Source of the DNA: Burkholderiales bacterium
GTDB lineage: Bacteria; Pseudomonadota; Gammaproteobacteria; Burkholderiales; Ga0077523
Reading direction: 5' to 3'
Assembly (NCBI GenBank): GCA_019747905.1
Contig: JAIEQG010000087.1
Coordinates: forward strand, 71,905-135,904
Length of the DNA stretch: 64,000 nucleotides
Shown: positions 3,921-51,729 of the stretch, in pieces
How positions within the stretch are numbered: the stretch's first letter is position 1
How the letters are laid out: each line of letters starts with the position of its first letter
Notes under the pieces: generated by a model
Told to the model about the DNA's origin: nothing
Database searches by the model: none
The model's input: only the letters and a program-made list of their open reading frames with translations
Program-made: the position numbers and the translations under genes

Positions 3921-4017
3921 CCCGCGGGGTCGATTTTCGCCTCGGGAGCGCCGCGATCAGCGGCGCTGCCGGCCCGTCCGTCCCAAGAAACCCCGGTTGC
4001 GCGCCGTGGATCACGCC

Positions 4018-6816
4018 ATGACCAGAAATTCAGCCCTGCTCGCTGTTGCCCTGCTGCTAGCCTGCCCCGCCGGGGCCTGGGCGCGCGAGGACAAGGCCGC
4101 AGGCTTCTACGAAGACGCCCTGACCCGCCTGGATAAGCAGGACGAGGCCGGCGCGATCATCCAACTCAAGAATGCCTTACAGGCCGACCCGAGAATGGTC
4201 TCGGCACATCTACTGCTCGGCCGCGCCTATCTCCAGAGCGGTGTGCCCGACGCCGCCCAGGAATCGCTCGAAACGGCGCAACGGCTGGGTGCGGATCGGA
4301 GCCAGGTGGCGCTTCTGCTCGCGCGGGCCATGGTGGATCAGGGTAAGGCGAAGGAGGTCATCGATCGCTTTCCACCGGAAGTCGTGCCGCCCAACGAGCG
4401 GGTGGACCTGTTGGTGGTACGGGGCGAGGCATACCGGCAACAGGCAGACATGCGAGCGGCAACCCAAAGCTACGAAGCTGCGCGGGCGTTCGATCCGCTT
4501 TCCGTTACTGCCGCCCTAGCCTTGGCCGATGCCTATGCCAAGCAGGGGCGAGAAGCGGAGGCGGGCAGACTTGCCGACGAAGCGGTGTCCCGGTCGCCAG
4601 GCGAGGCCCGCGTCTGGTACACGAAGGGTTCGGTGTTGCACGCTTCGCGCAACTTCGACGGAGCCTTGGCAGCCTATGCTCAGGCGATCAAACTGCAACC
4701 GAAACATGTCGATGCTCGTCTTGCCCGTGTCTCCTTGTTGTTCGATCTGGGACGGGACAAGGAGGCGCTGCCCGATCTCGACTACCTCAAGAAGGAAGTC
4801 CCGCAGGAGCCCCGCGGTGCCTACTACCGGGCGCTGAATGCGACGCGGACAGGCGATGCGAAGGGGACGCACGACTCGCTGACCGAGGTTACCGCGCTGC
4901 TCGATCCGGTCCCGGCCGACGTGCTGCGCGCCCGGGCTCCTGAGCTGTTGATGATCGGGGCACTTGCCCATCACGGTCTGAACGAGCAGGAAAAGGCCAT
5001 TCGCTATCTGGAAGCCTTCCTGCAGGGCAGCCCCACAAGTGCCGGGGCTCGCAAGCTCCTGGCATCGATTCACATCGGAAGGCGTGAATTCAACCGTGCA
5101 ATCGACATACTCGAGGTGGGGCAACGACATGCCCCGAGGGACCCGCAATTGTTGGCGCTGCTGGCTAGCGCCTACATGGCAGTCGGCAAGAATCAGATGG
5201 CCGCGCGTTTCCTCGAGCGCGCGATGGAGAAGGGCGGCGATTCGCCCGAGGTGAATGCAACCCTCGGCTTCAACCTCCTGCAGAATGGTCAGCAGGACCT
5301 CGGCATCCAGTACCTGCAGAAGGCGTTCGACAAGGACCCGACGCGCGGCAACCTGGGCACGTCGCTCGTGGCACTCTACATTCGGCGATCCGAGCCCAAG
5401 AAGGCTCTGGCGATAGCGGAACGGCTACTGCAGCGCCAACCCGACAATGCCATGGTCCTGAACTTGATGGGGGCAGCCAAGTCCGCACTCGGCGACAAGG
5501 CCGGTGCGCGGGTTGCCTATGAAAAGGCGGCAAAATCTGACCCCGGCTTGTCCGCGGCGCGCTTGAACCTGGCCAAACTTGATCTGGCCGATCGCAATTT
5601 CGACGCCGCCCGAACGCGGCTTCTGGCACTGAACAAAGCCCAAGCCAAGGATCCTCAGCCTATGTACGAGCTGGCGCGGCTCGAGAGCATGGCCGGACGG
5701 CCAGTCGAGGCGACCCGCTGGCTCGAGCGGCTGCGGGCGGCTGATCCGGGACATATTCCTGGTGGGTTGCTGCTTGCGGAACTCTTCATGCAGGGCGAGC
5801 AGCCAAAGAAGGCGCTGGAGGTCCTCCAGGCGCTGCAGCCAGGGGCTCAGAACAATCTCGACGTCAATGGAGCGCTGGCGGCGGCGCTCATCGTTAACGA
5901 CGATCCCAAGGGTGCCCAGACGATATTGGCCCGAATGACCCGTGTGGCCGAGTACGACCCGGCGTGGCAGCATCGCATCGCGCAGTTGCAGGTTCGGGCA
6001 GGCAACACGCAGGGAGCTGTCTACAGCCTCGACAAGGCGCTGGAGGCAGACACCAAGTATCTACCCGCGCGCGTATTACAAGTGGAGATCGACGTCAGTG
6101 AAAACCGACTCGACCAAGCCGAGTCGCGGGCGCGTGCTTTGTTGGCCACGCATCCGGCAGAGGGCGAAGGCTATCGGCTTCTAGGAGACGTGTCTGTTCG
6201 GCGCGGGAGGTTCCAGGATGCCGCGGGTTTCTACCGTACTGCGCTAGGCAAGGCGCCCGTGACACCGAACGCCCTACGGGTCTACAACGCCGTCCTTGCC
6301 AGTGGTGACGGCAAGGGAGCTACGGCGTTCCTCGAAAACTGGATCAAGTCGCATCCTGACCCGATTGCCGGTCAAGCGCTTGCCGAAGGGTATCTCCGAC
6401 TCGGAGACCTTCAGGCGGCCAAGCTGCGATACGAGGCGCTGGTCAAGTCAGGCAACGAGGTACCCGGTGTCCTGAACAATCTCGCCATCATCTCCGATCG
6501 CCTCGGGAACGGGGAAAAGGCCGTCGAATATGCCCAGCGCGCCGTCAAGATAGCGCCCGGCAACCCCGGGATTCTCGATACATTGGGCTGGCTGCTGGTC
6601 AGACGAGGGGATTTCGACGCCGGACTCAAATCCCTGCGCGAAGCCAGAGTTCGTGACCCACGCAATCCCGAGATACGATTCCACCTGGCCAGTGCCCTGG
6701 CGATGGGCGGCCGCAACGTTGAGGCCCGTCAAGAACTTACGCTGCTCCTGTCGGATTCACCATCGTTCCCGGGCGCCAGCGATGCCCGTGCGTTGCTGAA
6801 AGAACTCGGAGGTTGA
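4018..6816 (+). CDS. prsT: PEP-CTERM system TPR-repeat lipoprotein (PrsT-like)
   Basis: About 930 aa made almost entirely of TPR-like helical repeats (recurrent A..Y..AL..-P....A...LA motifs). The N-terminus MTRNSALLAVALLLAC has a lipobox (LLAC). Size, lipobox and all-TPR build match TIGR02917 PrsT, and PEP-CTERM genes are nearby. ATG 4018 is preferred over the listed TTG 3997. Confidence 0.7.
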   Translation: MTRNSALLAVALLLACPAGAWAREDKAAGFYEDALTRLDKQDEAGAIIQLKNALQADPRMVSAHLLLGRAYLQSGVPDAAQESLETAQRLGADRSQVALLLARAMVDQGKAKEVIDRFPPEVVPPNERVDLLVVRGEAYRQQADMRAATQSYEAARAFDPLSVTAALALADAYAKQGREAEAGRLADEAVSRSPGEARVWYTKGSVLHASRNFDGALAAYAQAIKLQPKHVDARLARVSLLFDLGRDKEALPDLDYLKKEVPQEPRGAYYRALNATRTGDAKGTHDSLTEVTALLDPVPADVLRARAPELLMIGALAHHGLNEQEKAIRYLEAFLQGSPTSAGARKLLASIHIGRREFNRAIDILEVGQRHAPRDPQLLALLASAYMAVGKNQMAARFLERAMEKGGDSPEVNATLGFNLLQNGQQDLGIQYLQKAFDKDPTRGNLGTSLVALYIRRSEPKKALAIAERLLQRQPDNAMVLNLMGAAKSALGDKAGARVAYEKAAKSDPGLSAARLNLAKLDLADRNFDAARTRLLALNKAQAKDPQPMYELARLESMAGRPVEATRWLERLRAADPGHIPGGLLLAELFMQGEQPKKALEVLQALQPGAQNNLDVNGALAAALIVNDDPKGAQTILARMTRVAEYDPAWQHRIAQLQVRAGNTQGAVYSLDKALEADTKYLPARVLQVEIDVSENRLDQAESRARALLATHPAEGEGYRLLGDVSVRRGRFQDAAGFYRTALGKAPVTPNALRVYNAVLASGDGKGATAFLENWIKSHPDPIAGQALAEGYLRLGDLQAAKLRYEALVKSGNEVPGVLNNLAIISDRLGNGEKAVEYAQRAVKIAPGNPGILDTLGWLLVRRGDFDAGLKSLREARVRDPRNPEIRFHLASALAMGGRNVEARQELTLLLSDSPSFPGASDARALLKELGG

Positions 6817-6896
6817 GTGTCGAAAGTGTTTACAGCGCTATTCATGCAACCGCATTGATGGCCGACAAATCCTTGTTGTTTTGAGAGATTTTGCAC

Positions 6897-6912
6897 TGGC
6901 TTGTGGCTTGCT
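6897..6912 (+). promoter_or_regulatory. Putative sigma54 (RpoN) -24/-12 promoter of PEP-CTERM gene 1
   Basis: TGGCttgtggcTTGCT compared with consensus TGGCACG-N4-TTGCW, with correct GG/GC spacing. It ends 47 nt upstream of GTG 6959, with a GGGGGA RBS in between. The same element occurs at the same distance before the second PEP-CTERM gene (49493-49508). Confidence 0.65.
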
Positions 6913-6958
6913 TTACGGGTGGCTAGCCAAACCACGAATTCTGGGCGGGGGATAGACC

Positions 6959-7873
6959 GTGAATCTGAAGCGAATCTTTGTGACGTCGATCGGCGTGCTG
7001 GCACTGGGGTCTGGCGGCCTGGTGCAAGCGGCTACGACTTATAACTGGACCTGGTCCACGACGCTGTCTGGGAACCCACCCGCCGACAATACGACTTGGA
7101 CTCCATCGACAACGACCGGCGACTGGTGCAGCGGAATGAATTCCGCGTCCATGTCGACCTACGGCAATTGCGCGCGCTTCGGTGGTTCCGAGACCCCCGC
7201 AGGTTCCCTGACCAACGTCCTGCAGGTCAAGGCCTACTCGAACACAGGGGCAGGCAGTTCTCAGAGCACCTACGACATCGAAAGTGCCTACCTCGCCTTC
7301 TGGGGTTCGAGCGGCATGGGCGTTGTCAATCGGAATACAGGCGGTTCGGATCCGCCCGAGGGTGCAACGGGCGGGCCAACTCCGAGCAGCACCTCGCCCG
7401 AGCATTCGATCGACAACAACGGCCGCTACGATATGATTCTGCTGACGTTCGATCGTGCCGTCAGCTTGACGGGGGTCGATATTGGCTGGAGCGAGAACGA
7501 TAGCGACATCACCGTGATGGCACTCGGTGGCAGCTACTCGGAACTGGCGGGCAAGGATTACGGCAGCCTGGCCGCAGCGGGCTGGTCGTATGTGGGCCAT
7601 TTCGCCAACGCCGACGTTTCCGGGGCCTACTCGATCGCATCCGCCACGCAGGGGATCGAGTCGCGCTATTGGCTGGTAGGTGCGCGCAACCCGGCAGTTG
7701 GTGGTGCGTCGGGTGATTCCTACAAGGATTACATCAAGATCAAGGGTTTCACCGCCACGGAGAAGTACGGCAACAAGGTGCCCGAACCTGGCGCAATGTC
7801 GATAGCCTTGATCGCACTGGCCAGCGGTGCCTTCGTCACACTACGTCGTCGTAGCCGGCGCGTGGCGGACTAA
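6959..7873 (+). CDS. PEP-CTERM sorting-domain protein (exosortase substrate) 1
   Basis: Signal peptide MNLKRIFVTSIGVLALGSGGLVQA. The C-terminus ...KVPEPGAMSIALIALASGAFVTLRRRSRRVAD has the VPEP motif, a TM helix and an Arg cluster, which is the PEP-CTERM signature. The N-terminal region is Thr/Ser/Trp-rich. Confidence 0.85.
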   Translation: MNLKRIFVTSIGVLALGSGGLVQAATTYNWTWSTTLSGNPPADNTTWTPSTTTGDWCSGMNSASMSTYGNCARFGGSETPAGSLTNVLQVKAYSNTGAGSSQSTYDIESAYLAFWGSSGMGVVNRNTGGSDPPEGATGGPTPSSTSPEHSIDNNGRYDMILLTFDRAVSLTGVDIGWSENDSDITVMALGGSYSELAGKDYGSLAAAGWSYVGHFANADVSGAYSIASATQGIESRYWLVGARNPAVGGASGDSYKDYIKIKGFTATEKYGNKVPEPGAMSIALIALASGAFVTLRRRSRRVAD

Positions 7874-8016
7874 CAGCCGGATCTCGACGACGGCGGGTCG
7901 TTCATTTCGGTACGACCTGTAAATGCTTGTGGCCGGCCGCCGCCCGCCCATATGACTTTCAGGTACGTGAACAGCGGAAGCTAGACTTCACTTAGACCTA
8001 TAGTCAACCCGGCGCC

Positions 8017-8908
8017 TCACAAAGCGTCCCTTTCAAAGGCCTCGGGACTGACGCCACCTAGATGGCTGTGACATCGGGTTCGATTGTAGAAGATCTTGAT
8101 GTAGTCGAAGACGTCGGTCCGGGCCAGCTCCCGGGTCTTGTAGATGCGCTTGCCGATGCGCTCCTTCTTCAACCTGCTGAATAAGGACTCGGCGACGGAA
8201 TTGTCCCAGCAATTGCCGCGACGGCTCATGCTCGGCTCCAGTTGATGAGCTCGGCAGAAGCGCTGCCAGTCATCGATGCCGTATTGCGTGCCCTGTCGGA
8301 ATGGACGATGACCGGCTGTGCTGGCTTGCGCCGCCACAGCGCCATCAGCAGAGCATCCAGGACCAGTTCGCGTGCCAGGGTCGGCTTCATCGACCAGCCC
8401 ACGACCTTGCGGGCATACAGGTCCAGGACAGCGGCCAGACAGAGCCAGCCCTGGCAGGTTCGGATGTAGGTGATGTCGGTAACCCAGACCCGGTCCGGCG
8501 CATCGACCGTGACCTCGCGATTGAGTCGGTTCGGCGAAAGGAGCGAGGGCCGGCCGGCCACCGGGCGGGGAGCCTTGTAGCCGCGCAGCGCCCTGATCTT
8601 GTTGACCCGCATGATACGAGCGACGCGATGCTTGCCTCAGGTGTCGCCGGCTTCACGCAGATCGCCGAATACCCGCGGCGAGCCGTACACGCCGCCGCTG
8701 GCTGCATACGAATCGCGAATGACGCCCAGCAGTCGCTGGTCGTCGCTCGCCCGATCCGACAACGGCTTGTGCAACCATCGATAGAAGCCGGCAAGTGCCA
8801 CCTGCAGAACCCGGCACATCGTGGCGATGCGGAATTCATGGCGGTGATCGTTGATGAATCGGTACTTTACTCGGGCTCCTTGGCAAAGTACCGCGCGGCC
8901 CTTTTTAG
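8017..8908 (-). pseudogene. IS3-family orfB (DDE transposase) with one nonsense codon and one frameshift
   Basis: An in-frame TGA at 8639-8637 sits where family members have Cys (...REAGDT*GKHRVARIMR...). A 1-nt deletion near 8293-8299 changes the expected HSDQGTQY to HSDRARNT, and the correct frame resumes as GTQYGIDDWQRFCRAH... Confidence 0.8.
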
Positions 8909-9151
8909 GATGTCGCGCTCCTCTTCCGTGCGGCGCAGCTGCGCGCGCAACTTCAGGATGTCGCTCTTCGCCTCGATCAGATCGGCCGCCTGCTTCTCCG
9001 TCTTGTCCGGCGTCACCGCCTTCACCCACTTGTACAAACTGTGGCTGGACACGCCCAGCCGCGCCGAAATCTCAGAGACGCAATGGCCCCGATCAAGAAC
9101 CTAGCGGGCTACCTCTTCTTTGACCTCCGGTGCAATTCTCTGGGTACCCAT
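8867..9151 (-). pseudogene. IS3-family orfA with an in-frame nonsense codon
   Basis: Reading from ATG (9151-9149) gives MGTQRIAPEVKEEVAR-TAG(9103-9101)-VLDRGHCVSEISARLGVSSHSLYKWVKAV...AKEPE. The premature stop falls at codon 17, inside the HTH region. Confidence 0.8.
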
Positions 9152-9418
9152 GCACTCCCCATCCTATGCTTGAACCATAGAACCGAAATGCCTACACAGC
9201 CGGCGAAGTCCGACCCTACCGAATCAATGTTGCTACCGGCGATCGCCGCTGCGGCGGCGATCGGCGAGAGACGATCAAAGGTGTCTGCTCGGCGAACGGT
9301 GGCATAGAGCCACCAATTCGGCCCCGCAGATCCCGACGCGAGGGGCTGGTACGGCGCAACCGATTCGGCTAGGATTGCAGGCTTCTTTTCATCGCTGAAT
9401 CTGCGGTGAAGGATCAGA

Positions 9419-9494
<76 letters not shown>

Positions 9495-9566
9495 TAACTC
9501 CTGAAAAGGCTGCGGTGCGCAGCAGCCTCTTCGACGGGTAGAGAGTTTCACGAGACCGACGCCTAC

Positions 9567-13585: not shown

Positions 13586-13905
13586 TGGCGGGCTCGACTC
13601 CGCAGAAGAAGATGTTTTCTATCAAATGGTTGAGATGTTTTGTCAGCGCCGCCGACAGTGCAAATTTCGATGCCGACCGCATAGCGAAAACCTGCCGGAT
13701 CGGTTAGATTCGAAGCGCATGGATCGGGGCTTTTTCGACAGTGCCAGCGCCCCATTCCGGCTCGATCAGGGAATAGAAGCACGGCAGACCCGACCGTCCT
13801 CGACGGTCCCTCAAACCGGCCTGCCGCATAACCAATAACGGGGGTGACCGCCCCGAACACGCCGCAGGGGCGGCCCCGAAACCCTGCGGACGTTGGAGAC
13901 CCGCC

Positions 13906-16900
13906 ATGATCTGGCGATTCGACTCGATCCGTTCCCTCATGGCGCCAGTGGGTACCCGTCGGCGCAAGGGTCAGAAGGCGGGAGCCGCTTCCGCCGATGC
14001 CCCCAATCGAGACAGGAAGGCGCCACCGTTCCGCCGCCGGCCCCTGTTCGAGGCACTCGAGCAGCGGCTGCTCATGTCGGCCGACACCGTCCAGATCATC
14101 CAGGGCGGCACCCAGGTGGACGGCAACATCACCGCCGCGGGCGAGACCGACCGTTACTCGTTCACGCTCACCGAAGCGAAGCAGCTCTACTTCGATGCGC
14201 TGACCGACACGCCCTTCAACTGGTCGCTCGAGGGGCCTGCCGGCACGCTGGTGAATGCGCGCAGTTTCCAGGGCTCCGATGCCCAGGACCTCAGCACTTC
14301 GCCGGTCCTCGACTTGAAACCCGGCGACTACATGCTCAGCGTCGACGCCAACCTCGACGCCACCGGTGCCTATGGCTTCCGCCTGCTCGATCTGGGTCAG
14401 GCCGGCACACTGACGCCGAACATCACGGTGTCCGGGCAACTCGATCCCGGCCGCGAGACGGATGCCTATCGGTTCACCGTGCAGGAGGGCGAGCGCTTCT
14501 TCTTCGATTCGCGGTCGGTGTCGAACACCAATGGCCAATGGCGCCTCGTCGATCCGTTCGGCGACCAGGTGTTCGCGACCAATATCGGCACCGACATCGA
14601 GCCGCCGGTCCTGACCAAGCCGGGTACGTACACGCTGTTGCTCGAAGGGCGACGCACCCAGGCCACGCCGATCAACTACCAGTTCAACGTGCAGAAGGTG
14701 GTCGACGAGAACGCAGCGCTCACGCTCGGCGCCCTCGTGAACGGCAGCATCGCGCATGCGGGCCAGCAGGACTTCTATTCGTTCGCGCTCGCGCAGCGCT
14801 CGCGCGTGTATCTCGACTCGCTCACGAACACCGGGATCCACTGGACGCTGACCGGGCCCAGCGGCGTGATCGTCGATTCGCGTGGCCTCAGTTCCACGGA
14901 CTCGAGTACCGTCGGATCCAATCCGGTGCTCGATCTGGTGGCCGGGAGCTACACGCTCCGGCTCGATGCTGCCGGCGATGCGACCGGCGACTACGCATTC
15001 CGCGTGCTGAACCTCTCGGCGGCCCCGACGCTGGTGCCGCTGCCCAGCGGCTCCACCCCGACCACTGCGACTCTCAATCCGGGTGCGAGCACGCTCCTGT
15101 ACGGCATCGACGCAGCCGCCGGCGACCGTCTGTTCTTCGATCGCCAGAGCCAGAGCGGCGGTACCGTCCACTGGCGTCTGGTCGATCCCTACGGCGGCCT
15201 GCTCTTCTCCAGCAATTTTTCCACGGACGTCGGCAATCTCACCTTGACCGCCGCCGGGCGCTACACGCTGCTGATCGAAGGTCATCCGAGCAACGCCGTA
15301 CCGATCGATGTCGTCTTCAATGTCGAGCCGCGCGGGAACCTCGTCGCGGAACGCACCACCTCGTTCGGCGACGAATTCGACGGCACGCTGAGCAGCAACT
15401 GGCGGCTGGAAACGCCGCGCGATGGCCAGGCGTACCTCGGTACGCCGAACTATCGGTTCGAGACGCTCGATGGCGCCCAGGTGCTGCGTCTCGACAACGA
15501 TCTCAACAACTCTCAGCGTGTGGCCTTCGGTTCCACCAGCGTGTTGCCGTCCGCGGCGAGCTTCCGCTACGAACTGCGCTTCAACACGCTCACCCAGTCC
15601 TTCGCGACCGGGGTCGAAGGGCTGCTCGAATTCTGGTTGGTCGACGAGGCCGACCCGAGCCGGTTCATCGCGGCCGCGGTCTATGGCGGACCCACCGGGC
15701 TCGACCGGCGCCTGTTCTCCAACGCTCCGCAAGGCGGCGGCTTCGTGAATCAGACGCTCGCCTTCGCCGACAACACGTGGTACCGCGCCGTGATCGAAGG
15801 GTCGCCGACGCAGGCCATGAAGGTGTCGATCCTGAGCGACGCCGGCACGGAGCTCATGAGCCGGACCTTCACCGTCGGCACCGACCTCTTCGCGAACGGC
15901 TTCCGCGTGGGCTTCGGGCAGTCCACGTCATCGCCGAATCGACTCGCGCCGATGGACGTCGCGATCGACTACGCGCGCGTGACCGCCACGCCGCTTGCCA
16001 CGACACCGCTGGTGTTCGACACCCTCACCACAGGGACGCGTACCGTCGCCAACCAGCGCGACGTCTATACCTTCAGCGTCGCCGCCGACACGATCGTCTA
16101 TTTCGACACACGCACCGACACCGGTGCGATCAACTGGACTCTCAAGGGGCCGTCCGGGACGCTGGTCGCGAACCGTCCGCTCTCACAGTCCGACGCGCAG
16201 GACGGCCGACCGTTCTACCGGCTCGTGGCGGGCGAATACACGCTCACCTTCGCCGGCACCGGCACCGGCGCCTACACCTTCAAGCTCGGCAACGTGGCGA
16301 GCGGCACACCGATCACGCTCGGGACATCGGTCAGCGGTGTGTTGAGTCCCGGCAACGAAACCGACGTCTACCGCTTTGCTGCCAATGCCGGCGAACGCCT
16401 CTACGTCGACATGCAGACCGTGCAGAACGGCGACGGCTGGTGGCGGCTGCTCGATCCGAACGGCGACGAGGTATGGTCTGCCGGGATCAGCACCGACAGC
16501 GGCGTGCTGGCGATGCCGCACACGGGCACCTACACGCTGATGCTCGACGGCCGCCGTTACTACACGGTGGACAACGCGTACCGGTTCAACGTCTCCCGTG
16601 TCGTCGATACCACGCGGGCACTGGTCCCCGGTGAAAGCCAGGGTCTCGGACCCTACTGGTCGACGGGGCCGACCGGCAACGCGCTCGAGTTCGCAGATCT
16701 CGACTATGTCGAGGTGCCCCACGGCAGCGCCACCAATCTTGCGGGCAGCATGACGTTCGAGGCGCGCGTACGCATCGACAGCTTCGTCAACACGTGGACG
16801 CCGATCCTCTACAAGGGTGCCAACAGTCCCGGTACCGGCAATGAGTGGCAGTTGCGGACCTTCTCGCTGTACGTCAACAGCGATGGCCGACTGTCGATGA

Positions 16901-43900: not shown

Positions 43901-46900
43901 AACTCATCCCGACATACACCACGGCGCTTGCGGGCGGTCTGCGCGGGCAGTTGCTGAACGCGGCCACCGCGTCGGGTTTCAGCGTCGATCCCGGCCGCGA
44001 CGCCGGCCTCGCGTACGATGCCCTCCGACGTTTCGGTCAGTTCTACCTGACCGAATACGATTCGATCCTCCAGGGCGCCAATCTGGCCGGCGGGGCGTTC
44101 GGCCTGAGGGACATGGTGACGGCGATGGTGCCGGCCTTCAACCAATACCTGGCGAGCCTTGCGAGCCAGGGAGCGCGTCTGGCGGTGCTCGATGCGCTGA
44201 AGGTGTACGAACCCGACCTGACCGGGGTTGCCTCGGGAGGAGATGTGGCGACCAGGGCGGCCATGAAGCTGGCTCAGGAATACTTCGCCAACTGGTCGTT
44301 CCGTCTCGACAACGCGGCGCCGAGCGCGGGTACGGCGAAACTGCAGCACAACTGGATGTTCGTGCCGCCGTCCGTGTCCTATCTCACGTTCGCACTCGAT
44401 CCGGAGGGTGTCGCCACCGGCTCGCTCAACGTAACGATGGAAACGACGAGCGGCAGTGTCGTCACCCTTGGCACGATCAACCTGGACGCGCTGCCCGACG
44501 GGTTTACCACGCAACGGATCGCACTACCTTCTTCAGTCAAGGGGGAGGTGGTCAAGCTGACCTTCGAACTCGCGGCATCGGGGTCGACCAGCGTGCTGAT
44601 CGACGACATCAAGTTCGACGGTCTGCTGGTGAGCGATACCAGCGGGGCCGCGGGCGACAGCCAGGTACTGTTCCTCGACGATACGGATCCGAACGGCTCG
44701 GGAACGCCCGCGCCGGGGACCGACATCGTGTACGCGCCGAACAAGAACATCCACGAGATCACGATCACGAATCCGGGCACCGACAGCATCGTCGTGCGCG
44801 TGGCGGTCGAAGCGAACGACTTCCTCGTCGGTCTCGATGCCGGTGGGGTAGAGACGCTCTACAACGACGGGCAGGACCATAACCTCGGCGACACCATCAT
44901 CACCGGCGGGTCCAGTCTCACGCTGAAATTCAAGTCGGCGCTCGATCTGCAGGACCTGTTCGGGTCCGGGCGCGTCGACGTCAACACCTTCACCTACGAC
45001 CAGTGGCTGATGCAGGGGATCCTGAAGCTGTCGGTGCTGGACGCGGTCGGCGGCAACGAGCTCTCGGGCCAGGACGTCAGGCTGTACTACCTGGCCGACA
45101 TCGGCGACAGCGACGTGGATGACGGCGTGCTGGAGATTGCGCGCACGCGCGATGGCACGACAAGATCGTTGCAGATTCTCAACGACACGGACCTGGAGAT
45201 CGAAACGGCCGGTACGCTGCCGGCTCGCTTCCAGGTCACGACCGCGGGCGGGCCGGTATCCGAACTGCAGTTCACGGCAGTGGGGAACGACGGTAGCCCG
45301 GTGTCGGATACGCTCAAGATCAGATCGAACGACGCGGTGCTGGGTGAACTCAAGGTCCGTGGCCAATCGGTGCGACAGATTGGCATCCATGTGGATCTGG
45401 CTCAGTTCAAGAACTACTTCCGGAACTTCTACAACGCCCTCGTGGCGTACCAGACCAACCCCGGCACCTCGAACCTGACGGCGTTCGATCAGGTGCCGAC
45501 GGCTCTGATCGATCCGGACATGCCAGGGCTGGGTCCGCGGATCGATGGCTATCAGCCGTTCATCGACCGGATGTCCTTGGGTAACCTCGAGGCGAATCTG
45601 GATGCGCTGATCGCGGGATTGCGTTCGGCCATCGAAGACGTCTACGCCGGCTTCTACGGTTCGGCGCTAAATCTCGTCTTCACTTCGGGTGCATCCAACG
45701 TCGTCGTCAATGTCAGCGACGCCAGTTCGCCCCTGGGGTCCTCCCAACAGGATGTCGACTACAAGGAGATGTTCGGTGTCGACGGGTTCCTGGACGGCAC
45801 CCAGTTCACCAACCCGCCGGCGAGTCCGACCTGGACCGCTCGCCGGGACCTGACGCCGGCAGCGATCCGCTTCAGGGTGGATTCCACCCTGAACAACAAT
45901 CCCAGCGACAGCATGAATCTGTTCCCGGCGATGAACATCCTGACCATCTCCGCATCGATCCTGTCGACTTCGCTACCGACATCGGTCGGCACCGCGGAGA
46001 ACTATGGCCGATGGACCGGGTTCACGATCGCTCACGAGCTGGCGCATTCGCTGGGCCTGTTCGACGAGTACTACACTCCCAACAATACGGGCTTCCTGCC
46101 GATCGACGCCAAGCTCACGAGCTTTGCGAACCCCGTGCCCAACAGCGGTGCGCCAGACTACCGGTTCAGCACGAGCTTCATGAACGATTCGGCGCTCGCG
46201 CTCGACGCAGCGGGACGCATCCGAATCGACGTGGAGAAGTTCCACAAGGGCTTGTTCGCTCTGGCGCTCAACGACCAGGCTCTCGCGGACCAGTACTGGG
46301 GCTACGACAGCAACCAGGCCGCCATTGGCTTCAAGTTCGGCGACGACCTCGGGACGCTCCTGGCCGTCAACGCGTACAACTACCCAGGGAAGTTCGTCCC
46401 CAAGGACTCCGGGCTTCTGGACATGTCGGATGCATTCGTAGGGAACGCCGCGGCGGTTCAGCAAGTGTCGTCGCCACTGCTGACCATGCCGCCCTTGGCC
46501 GAATGGGCACTGCGCGGGGCGGCGCAGCAGCAAGGAGGCAGGTTCGACCTTGCCGAAGACGCTGCCTTGCTGACCCGCGCGGCACGTACGCTCGCTGTCC
46601 CGACTGCCGCGCGCACCCTTTCGTTCCAGATCCTCGATGCGGATTTCGACGCGATCGGCCGCGGGCCGCAGGATGCCTTCGAGGTGGCGCTGCTCGACCC
46701 GACGACGGGCGCGTCGCTGCTTGGCAGCATCGGGCTCACGCGCACCGATGCGCTGCTGAACATTCAGGCGGACGGTGCGCTCCGACGCGCCGCGGGCGTG
46801 AACCTGTCCGGCATTGCAGGCGATGTTTTCCCAGGCGATGTCACGTCTCCGATCGTCGTCACGATCGACCTGACAGGTCTCAATGTGTCGAACGGTGTCG

Positions 46901-49413: not shown

Positions 49414-49492
49414 TGGGGTTCAGCGTCGAGCAATTTGACAAATGGGGGCAACGCGGGACAATCAATCTTTAATAATCAGTGCATTATGGTCT

Positions 49493-49508
49493 TGGCCCGT
49501 CGATTGCT
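49493..49508 (+). promoter_or_regulatory. Putative sigma54 (RpoN) -24/-12 promoter of PEP-CTERM gene 2
   Basis: TGGCccgtcgaTTGCT compared with TGGCACG-N4-TTGCW, with correct GG/GC spacing. It ends 48 nt upstream of ATG 49556. An AT-rich tract (aatcaatctttaataatc) lies just upstream. It mirrors 6897-6912. Confidence 0.7.
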
Positions 49509-49555
49509 GCTAGAATAAACCTATCGAAATGTGAGAATCACAAGGTCAGATTAAA

Positions 49556-50212
49556 ATGCGGCTCTTCAAGTGGATTTCGGCTGTTCTCGGAACGTTTCTG
49601 CTGGCCCCGGCAAACGCGTTCGCCTTCCCTGTCGACGTCTCGTTCACCAGATGCATCTACGACGCGGCGCCGACGCCGCAGTGCATCGATGTCGTCCCGA
49701 CGCTTCCGTATGTGAACGAGGTACTCAACATCACATTCTCGGTCACCGGTGGCGCCAGCGGCATCAGCGGACTGTACGTTGACCTCATCCCTGACACGCT
49801 CTTCCCTTCCTTCGACGAAAGCAACCTCGCTTACATGAAGAAAGCGAACGACTCCGGTGCAGCGACTGACACGGGGTACGATTACCTACCAGGCGTTTCC
49901 GTCCAGTGGCGTCTGTATCCTAAAGCGGTCGGCGCGATCTTCAACGTCGCCGACGGTGGGATCGTCGATATCGTCTTCACAGAAATCCTGGCCAAGGCGG
50001 ATCCCGCGAGGCCCTTCACGTCGGTGATGGGCTTCCAAATCTGTACCGTTAATCCTAACGGGGACTCGACGTGTGAGCCGGGTTCGGTTCCTGTCAGCTT
50101 CGTGGTTCCGAACGGCGCCAACAGGGTTCCCGAACCCACCTCTCTGTGGCTGGTGTTGGCTGCGCTCGTGGCGGGCGCCGCGGTATTCCGCAAGGGTTCG
50201 AACCGCTCCTGA
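49556..50212 (+). CDS. PEP-CTERM sorting-domain protein (exosortase substrate) 2
   Basis: Signal peptide MRLFKWISAVLGTFLLAPANAFA. The C-terminus ...ANRVPEPTSLWLVLAALVAGAAVFRKGSNRS has VPEP, a TM helix and a basic tail. Its codon usage is visibly less GC-rich than that of the neighbouring genes. Confidence 0.85.
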   Translation: MRLFKWISAVLGTFLLAPANAFAFPVDVSFTRCIYDAAPTPQCIDVVPTLPYVNEVLNITFSVTGGASGISGLYVDLIPDTLFPSFDESNLAYMKKANDSGAATDTGYDYLPGVSVQWRLYPKAVGAIFNVADGGIVDIVFTEILAKADPARPFTSVMGFQICTVNPNGDSTCEPGSVPVSFVVPNGANRVPEPTSLWLVLAALVAGAAVFRKGSNRS

Positions 50213-50241
50213 CGAACAAGAAGCGAGCGATGTGCACACTG

Positions 50242-50268
50242 TCGGCGCCGTAAGGCGCCGATTTTTTT
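50242..50268 (+). terminator. Rho-independent terminator after PEP-CTERM gene 2
   Basis: TCGGCGCC-gtaa-GGCGCCGA is a perfect 8-bp GC stem followed by TTTTTTT, 30 nt after the stop codon. Confidence 0.85.
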
Positions 50269-50475: not shown

Positions 50476-51729
50476 ATGCAGCTCATCGCCTTCGGAGTCA
50501 ACCACCAGACCGCACCGCTCGCCATCCGCGAGCAGGTGGCGTTTCCGGCCGAGCATCTGCGGCCGGCGCTGCGCAATCTGGTCGAACACACTCCGGTGCG
50601 GGAAGCGGCAATCATCTCCACCTGCAACCGCACCGAGGTTTACTGTTCGACTGCGGAGCCGTTGCAGGTCAAGCGCTGGCTCGCGCAGTACCACAGTCTC
50701 TCGACCGATCGGCTCGATCCGTTTCTCTACGAGTTTCCGAGCGAGCAAGCGGTGAGCCACGCGTTCCGGGTCGCGAGCGGCCTCGATTCGATGGTCATCG
50801 GCGAGGCCCAGATCCTCGGCCAGATGAAGCAGGCGGTGCGGGAAGCGGAAGAGGCGGGCACGCTCGGCACCGTGCTGCACAAGCTGTTCCAGCACACGTT
50901 CTCGGTGGCCAAGGAAGTGCGCACGCGCACGGACATCGGCGCGAGTTCCGTTTCCCTCGCGGCGGCTGCGGTGCGAGTGGCCGAGCGGATCTACCCGGAT
51001 CTCGCCGAGCAGTCGATGCTGTTCATCGGCGCCGGCGAGATGATCGAGCTCTGTGCGACGCATTTCTGCGCCCGAAAACCGCGGGCGGTGACGTTCGCGA
51101 ATCGCACCACGGAGCGCGCGGCCGAGCTCGCCCAGCGCTTCTCGGCGCGTGCGGTGGCTTTGCCCGACTTGCCGGAGCACGTCGCGCAGCACGACATCAT
51201 CGTCACCTGTACGGCAAGCCCCTTGCCGATCCTCGGCAAGGGGCTCATCGAACGCGCGTTGCGGGCGCGGCGGCACCGCCCGATCCTGATCGTCGATCTC
51301 GCGGTGCCGCGTGACGTCGAGCCGGAGGTGGGCAATCTCGGCGACGTGTTCCTCTACACCGTCGACGATCTCGGCCGCATCGTGCAGGAAGGTGTCGACA
51401 ATCGCCTGTCGGCCGTGACCCAGGCCGAGGCCATCATCACCGAGGGCGTGAACGATTTCATGCAGTGGCTGCAGACCCGCAAGAGCGTGCCGACCATTCG
51501 CGCGTTGCGCGACCACGCCGAACGCCTGCGGCGGCACGAGATGGAGCGGGCAGCGAAGGCGCTCGCCCGAGGCGACGATCCGGCCGCCGTCCTCGAAGCG
51601 CTCTCGCACGGCATCACCAACAAGTTCCTGCACGCGCCGACTGCCGCCCTGCACGAGGCCGACGCCGAAGAGCGCGACCGCCTCGTGGTGCTGCTGTCGC
51701 GGCTGTACTCCTTCCCCCGCGAGGAATGA
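50476..51729 (+). CDS. hemA: Glutamyl-tRNA reductase
   Basis: 417 aa. [23 protein letters not shown]..., the catalytic-Cys motif [14 protein letters not shown]-binding FIGAGEM, and a conserved dimerisation tail. It is followed by prfA as in the classical hemA-prfA-prmC arrangement. Confidence 0.95.

Follow-up and report, generated by a model that had tools for sequence, protein, structure and literature searches.

Two -24/-12 elements, one ahead of each PEP-CTERM gene in a 64,000-nt stretch of an uncultured Burkholderiales genome, very probably form the core of PrsR-type, enhancer-dependent sigma-54 promoters of the 'PEP-CTERM box' type; from sequence comparison we put the probability of this reading at about 0.87. 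The stretch (contig C163, positions 71905-135904; hereafter the window) belongs to a 4.9-Mb assembly of 164 contigs with 66% G+C and 91.5% completeness. The initial annotation of the window had described the two 16-mers as near-consensus sigma-54 elements under PrsK/PrsR control, and had missed a 17-nt enhancer, YGTCG-N6-YTKACA, that is present at both promoters.

Two PEP-CTERM genes in the neighbourhood of prsT and a giant gene

Family-model searches confirmed that the window contains only two PEP-CTERM genes. The first (6959-7873, plus strand) encodes a 304-aa exosortase-dependent surface protein of the XDP1 family (NF041927, 182.6 bits; cut-off 125) in which a signal peptide is followed, at the C-terminus, by VPEP, a transmembrane helix and RRRSRR. 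Upstream of it lies prsT (3997-6816, plus strand), coding for the TPR lipoprotein of the XrtA/PEP-CTERM system (TIGR02917, 597 bits against a cut-off of 312). The second, hereafter gene 2 (49556-50212, plus strand), encodes a 218-aa PEP-CTERM protein (TIGR02595, 19.8 bits against a cut-off of 16, and 24.1 bits in the genome scan) that likewise has a signal peptide and, at the C-terminus, VPEP, a transmembrane helix and RKGSNR. With the PepA model gene 2 scores 20.8 bits, the cut-off being 80, and the window proteins are therefore not PepA.

Gene 2 is preceded by a giant ORF of 11,835 aa (ATG at 13906, end at 49413), which has no sigma-54 promoter and whose product has no PEP-CTERM tail. Because gene 2 has a strong intrinsic terminator of its own, GTCGGCGCCGTAAGGCGCCGAT followed by TTTTTTT (50241-50262, plus strand), we regard it as a single-gene unit, with the appearance of a dedicated partner of the giant protein that is regulated separately. 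For XDP1 we detected no terminator downstream of the gene, the stretch up to the adjacent transposase remnant included. This remnant, a frameshifted IS3-type transposase directly downstream of XDP1, is made up of two neighbouring short ORFs (8017-8612, minus strand) with rve, rve_2 and rve_3 integrase-core domains within the poorly coding region 7874-9566.

A -24/-12 element and an upstream 17-nt motif at both genes

Both 16-mers were found where the initial annotation had placed them, with the canonical GG-N10-GC spacing. In the 142-nt noncoding region between prsT and XDP1, TGGCTTGTGGCTTGCT (6897-6912, plus strand) combines TGGC with TTGCT, its GG falling at 6898-6899 and its GC at 6910-6911. 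It scores 16.6 bits (rank 11 genome-wide) with a sigma-54 matrix that is an approximate rendering of the mrNrYTGGCACGrNNNTTGCWNNw consensus. The region between the giant gene and gene 2, likewise noncoding and 142 nt long, contains TGGCCCGTCGATTGCT (49493-49508, plus strand), again with TGGC and TTGCT, with GG at 49494-49495 and GC at 49506-49507 (15.4 bits, rank 30 genome-wide). The final base of the element lies 46 nt before the XDP1 GTG (6959) at site 1 and 47 nt before the gene 2 ATG (49556) at site 2; the distances of 47 and 48 nt given previously hold if the count runs to the start base itself. The GGGGGA reported for the XDP1 leader is present at 6947-6952, ahead of the GTG. Transcription is predicted to start near 6923, giving a leader of about 36 nt, and near 49519, giving one of about 37 nt. 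In agreement with the initial annotation, no such element precedes prsT (best score 2.6 bits) or the giant gene (best score 1.4 bits).

The description of the elements as near-consensus stands in part. GG and GC are in place at both sites, and site 2 has 11 of the 12 specified bases of TGGCACG-N4-TTGCW, with C for A at -22; site 1 has 10 of 12, with TT for AC at -22/-21. When scored with an organism-specific matrix, trained on 20 other sigma-54-like promoters of the genome and dominated by TGGCAC, site 2 ranks 9th among the non-training matches. The TT-for-AC substitution drops site 1 to 151st in the same ranking, so that 'near-consensus' is overstated for this site.

Further upstream, each promoter carries a 17-mer that corresponds to motif 1, or the PEP-CTERM box, and is the predicted PrsR enhancer. 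At promoter 1 this is TGTCGAAAGTGTTTACA (6818-6834, plus strand), which reaches 21.1 of 26.1 bits when scored by a matrix derived only from the XDP1 loci of other genomes; its centre lies at about -97 relative to the predicted transcription start and a 62-nt spacer separates it from the TGG of site 1. At promoter 2 the corresponding sequence is CGTCGAGCAATTTGACA (49424-49440, plus strand; 18.0 bits), centred at about -87, with a spacer of 52 nt to the TGG of site 2. The spacer of promoter 1 features a T-rich block, AAATCCTTGTTGTTTTGAGAGATTTTG (6867-6893, plus strand), which is kept in the three closest XDP1 loci and is a possible bend or architectural-protein site; no match to the IHF consensus with at most one mismatch was found in this spacer. 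Between the enhancer and promoter 2 there are two IHF-like sites (49460-49486, plus strand), AATCAATCTTTAA at 49460-49472 and AATCAGTGCATTA at 49474-49486, each with one mismatch to WATCAANNNNTTR at a chance rate of about 0.015 per spacer, and we infer that IHF may bind here.

This arrangement has a close precedent. Haft et al. (2006, BMC Biol 4:29; PMC1569441) described an element upstream of 99 of 167 proteobacterial PEP-CTERM genes (59%) that consists of motif 1, 17 nt long with a final TTTACA, then 62.8 +/- 10.6 nt of spacer (range 32-92) and motif 2, a 17-nt sigma-54 -24/-12 site at a mean of 71 nt (minimum 23) from the start codon. Both motifs are present at both window promoters, the spacers of 62 and 52 nt are in the published range and the distances of 46 and 47 nt between motif 2 and the start agree with the published distances. 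Both downstream genes code for proteins that combine a signal peptide with a PEP-CTERM domain, genes for PrsR, PrsK and PrsT are present in the genome, and gene 2 with its own terminator shares the single-gene organisation of the published cases. There are also differences: the intergenic regions are 142 nt each here as against more than 200 nt in the 2006 survey, and the best-conserved target in our set is, unlike there, an XDP1-family gene directly after prsT.

A further sequence resembling motif 1 was noted in the window. The TGTC-N9-GACA palindrome TGTCAGCGCCGCCGACA (13641-13657) lies in intergenic DNA 249 nt ahead of the giant gene ATG; as a minus-strand motif 1 it scores 16.0 bits, and only about 14 noncoding matches genome-wide reach at least 16 bits. 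The stretch from this palindrome to the giant gene contains no sigma-54 element (best 1.4 bits). Either PrsR could bind here and act without a sigma-54 promoter, or the match is a chance occurrence.

Conservation of both boxes and their spacing

Orthologues of XDP1 were drawn from genomes of the genus and from other families of the order. In 13 other genomes the gene is preceded by YGTCG-N6-YTKACA 60-65 nt upstream of a GG-N10-GC/TTGCT element, and in most orthologues the end of this element lies 39-61 nt ahead of the start codon, in one 122 nt ahead. The XDP1 proteins are only 30-63% identical and the remaining intergenic DNA has diverged, yet both boxes and their spacing are kept; the alignment of the loci displays the invariant islands TGTCG, TTACA, CTGG and TTGCTT. 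In 12 other loci a prsT orthologue lies directly upstream of XDP1. For gene 2 two orthologues were available, 63% and 27% identical, and here too both boxes are kept, with an identical spacer of 52 nt and with GCGTC, TTGACA, AATCA, TGG and TTGCT invariant. An orthologue of the giant gene directly precedes gene 2 in both orthologous loci (L048 and L049, genomes G027 and G007), the giant proteins being 78% and 61% identical to that of the window over the C-terminal 450 aa.

Such conservation bears on a different view of the sites, according to which the genes are transcribed by sigma-70 RNA polymerase, GG-N10-GC is fortuitous and the TTGACA in motif 1 of promoter 2 is a -35 hexamer. A sigma-70-like sequence, TTGACA-16-GACAAT, does match at 10 of 12 positions at 49435-49462, reusing the TTGACA of motif 1, and the mediocre score of site 1 with the organism-specific matrix would fit this view as well. 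However, the -10 of this candidate is not conserved in the gene 2 orthologues, whereas GCGTC, TTGACA, TGG and TTGCT are invariant, and no sigma-70-like promoter was found in the prsT-XDP1 intergenic region. Furthermore, the occurrence of both boxes at fixed spacing in 13 genomes for XDP1 and two for gene 2 is unexpected for a fortuitous match. A sigma-70 promoter is thus excluded at site 1, where there is no candidate, and unlikely at site 2, and we consider the sigma-70 view as a whole very unlikely.

The spacers between motif 1 and the promoter cluster at 52, 60-65 and 74 nt, approximately one helical turn apart. The Rayleigh test for helical phasing gives p ~5e-7, a value computed on orthologous sites, which are not independent. 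Since the sites lack phylogenetic independence, we retain the clustering as an observation only; the spacer classes fit face-of-helix phasing.

Chance expectation and genome-wide distribution

The initial annotation had held that two such matches at two chosen genes were very unlikely to arise by chance. Noncoding DNA of the genome contains 22 matches of at least 15.4 bits, compared to 3.6 +/- 1.6 expected under an order-3 Markov null of noncoding DNA, and the density of such matches is 22 times that of coding DNA. Under the same null the chance rate at the score of the sites is ~7e-4 per 200-nt upstream region, which makes two chance matches at two chosen genes very unlikely and argues against the fortuitous GG-N10-GC that sigma-70 transcription would entail. 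Together with the conserved boxes, these figures bear out the original claim. The other top intergenic matches precede flgB, flgH, three prepilin-type genes, a lytic transglycosylase gene and a response regulator gene, from which we conclude that the organism has a recognisable sigma-54 regulon.

In the window itself, TGGC-N7-TTGCW occurs five times as against 0.8 expected, a slight excess beyond what two promoters explain. The three remaining matches (7363-7378, 46309-46324 and 50744-50759, all minus strand) are antisense in coding DNA, score at most 13.5 bits and are taken as chance.

We compared upstream regions across a gene set obtained by crude calling (~4,400 genes, 89% coding). TGGC-N7-TTGC lies within 200 nt upstream of 2 of the 46 mapped PEP-CTERM genes, both of them in the window, and of 36 among 4,260 other genes; requiring TTGCW leaves 2 of 46 and 14 of 4,260 (p = 0.012). 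A composite score, in which the motif-1 matrix from other genomes' loci only is added to the sigma-54 matrix at a spacing of 40-95 nt, gave a much sharper separation: at a threshold of 22, seven of 46 PEP-CTERM genes and 4 of 4,246 other genes carry the architecture (Fisher p = 3e-12), and an eighth composite site is located at a contig edge (C78). The two window promoters rank first and second among the composite sites genome-wide.

The genome-wide enrichment for which the initial annotation had proposed a test is therefore present for the composite architecture, and it extends to a minority of the PEP-CTERM genes. About 39 of the 46 lack the architecture, and the coverage of about 15% compares with 59% in the survey of Haft et al. 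As so many of these genes have no such element, it is not a general PEP-CTERM promoter in this organism, and the remaining PEP-CTERM genes must be under different control. General sigma-54 control of all PEP-CTERM genes is ruled out by the counts of 2 of 46 for the strict motif and 7 of 46 for the composite.

The scan also returned sites away from PEP-CTERM genes. The third-best composite site (CGTCGATTTTTCTTACA, 74 nt, CTGGAACCCGTCTTGCTA, and 39 nt to the start) belongs to a gene outside the window at C163:14783-15283 (minus strand), ~5 kb from prsK, whose product, a secreted Cys-rich protein of 166 aa, matches no family. On the strength of the composite site, this protein probably belongs to the PrsR regulon without being a PEP-CTERM protein. 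The possibility that this gene and a 253-aa gene on C163, which also has a composite site, are missed PEP-CTERM genes was ruled out, as neither product has a PEP-CTERM tail. Very strong motif-1 matches of 19-22 bits were in addition observed in noncoding DNA of C150 (position 17881), C99 (8286), C153 (9068) and C111 (27515), all on the minus strand and numbered in strand coordinates. For none of them is there a sigma-54 element 100 nt or less away, and most lack a called gene downstream, so that they constitute orphan PEP-CTERM boxes.

Regulators, exosortase and the missing rpoN gene

The contig that contains the window, C163, encodes PrsK, PrsR, PrsT and XrtA. PrsR (C163:6124-7449) scores 714 bits against a cut-off of 503, PrsK, whose gene adjoins that of PrsR, 793 bits against 300, and XrtA (C163:49176-49946) 305 bits against 208. 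Besides PrsR the genome encodes about nine proteins that carry a sigma-54-interaction domain, bringing the number of activators to ~10 in all.

With so many NtrC-family paralogues at hand, the promoters might be true sigma-54 promoters on which another enhancer-binding protein of this family acts, the 17-mer being its site, and the binding of PrsR to motif 1 is itself a prediction from phylogenetic profiles (Haft 2006, PMC1569441). In that work, however, the profile of the DNA element is what led to PrsR, PrsK and PrsT, matching them exactly, and the 17-mer is the published motif 1. It is furthermore enriched specifically at PEP-CTERM genes and occurs directly after prsT in 12 genomes, and in Zoogloea, according to the account given in PMC9012009, prsK/prsR mutants lose pepA-dependent floc formation. 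We therefore regard an activator other than PrsR as improbable, though less so than sigma-70 transcription.

The sigma factor gene requires separate consideration, because rpoN was not found in the assembly either with an HMM or with tblastn using the RpoN of a congener. Its absence could be taken in favour of sigma-70 transcription, or to mean that the lineage has lost rpoN and that the sites are decaying, non-functional relics; one further genome of the genus, G012, is likewise without a match. Against a loss, all 8 same-order genomes and 11 of the 12 same-genus ones carry rpoN. The genes that lie to the left of lptB-rpoN-hpf in G007, a congener with a closed genome, map to the end of contig C135 (48483 of 48483), and those to the right come within ~155 nt of where contig C21 ends (C21:5634-5789). 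With the flanks of lptB-rpoN-hpf at two contig ends, we interpret the absence of rpoN as an assembly gap and not as gene loss, which also counts against this point of the sigma-70 view. The inferred position of rpoN in the unassembled C135-C21 gap would explain the absence but is not proof. In addition, the ~10 sigma-54 activators are retained and -24/-12 sites are in strong excess in the noncoding DNA ahead of flagellar and pilin genes, all of which makes the relic explanation scarcely credible.

A proposed mechanism of PrsR-dependent activation

The initial proposal that the sites are sigma-54 promoters under PrsK/PrsR is supported by the enhancer, its conservation and enrichment, the presence of PrsK, PrsR, PrsT and XrtA and the recognisable sigma-54 regulon, and PrsR-type promoters remain our preferred reading. 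Drawing on established sigma-54 biology and the cited papers, the mechanism may be pictured as follows. Sigma-54 RNA polymerase would bind GG-N10-GC (6898-6911 and 49494-49507) as a closed complex, while the membrane kinase PrsK would phosphorylate the NtrC-type response regulator PrsR. Phosphorylated PrsR would in turn bind the quasi-palindromic 17-mer YGTCG-N6-YTKACA, with its centre some 97 or 87 bp upstream of the transcription start, and DNA looping, probably helped by IHF at promoter 2, would bring it to the polymerase. ATP hydrolysis by PrsR would then open the promoter, allowing transcription from ~6923 and ~49519, and XDP1 and the small PEP-CTERM protein would be processed by the exosortase XrtA.

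Discussion

Classical sigma-54 promoters of the NtrC/NifA type combine an upstream activating sequence such as TGT-N10-ACA with an IHF-induced bend and a TGGCAC-N5-TTGC element. The window promoters resemble them in having an enhancer ~90-100 bp upstream of the predicted transcription start, a TGT...ACA quasi-palindrome and the invariant GG and GC, and, at promoter 2 only, an IHF-like site in the loop region. They differ in the spacing of the upstream sequence, which is TGT-N11-ACA (TGTC-N9-GACA), in the presence of a single copy in place of tandem sites and in the pyrimidine-rich -24 box, which reads TGGCTT or TGGCCC and not TGGCAC.

The literature to which the initial annotation had pointed is real (PMC9850573, PMC9012009, PMC1569441) and provides the closest functional parallels. 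In Aquincola tertiaricarbonis RN12, expression of pepA is RpoN1-dependent, with a mapped transcription start behind TGGCAC/CTGCTT and an upstream enhancer (PMC9850573). For pepA of Zoogloea resiniphila MMB, dependence on RpoN and on PrsK/PrsR has been shown (Gao et al. 2018, as cited in PMC9012009). As far as these accounts go, the likeness extends to the Burkholderiales-type organism, a PEP-CTERM gene beside prsT and a -24/-12 promoter with an upstream enhancer; in Aquincola and, by the same secondary account, in Zoogloea the dependence rests on experiment, whereas the organism of the window is known as a metagenome-type assembly. Further differences are that the window proteins are not PepA, and that pepA lies upstream of prsT in Aquincola whereas XDP1 lies downstream of it here. 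In the literature searched for the regulation of XDP1 we found no mention of this family.

Taken together, the scheme is an ordinary example of an already-described control architecture. This architecture was predicted along with its regulators in 2006, and genetics in Zoogloea and Aquincola has verified both, so that the current understanding of this control is unchanged. What is specific here is modest: the target kept most widely is the XDP1 gene that directly follows prsT, and the gene for a presumed partner of the giant surface protein is a second target. On a more speculative note, we offer a joint reading that we hold only tentatively and think more likely to be wrong than right, in which the unit prsT-PEP-CTERM box-sigma-54 promoter-XDP1, with its fixed 62-63-nt spacer, would be the core target that PrsR had ancestrally in this Burkholderiales lineage. 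The product of gene 2 would be a partner switched by PrsR, such as a tether or receptor anchored through exosortase, that conditionally couples the giant protein to the exopolysaccharide matrix, and the spacers of 52, 62-63 and 74 nt would reflect an obligatory face-of-helix requirement for PrsR.

For the biology of this uncultured Burkholderiales bacterium, our preferred reading of PrsR-type promoters assigns two of its genes to the probable PrsK/PrsR/sigma-54 regulon, which governs matrix proteins of flocs and biofilms. Only a minority of the genome's PEP-CTERM genes would belong to it, XDP1 being the most conserved of them, and the predicted coordinates of enhancers, promoters and transcription starts are now precise and testable.
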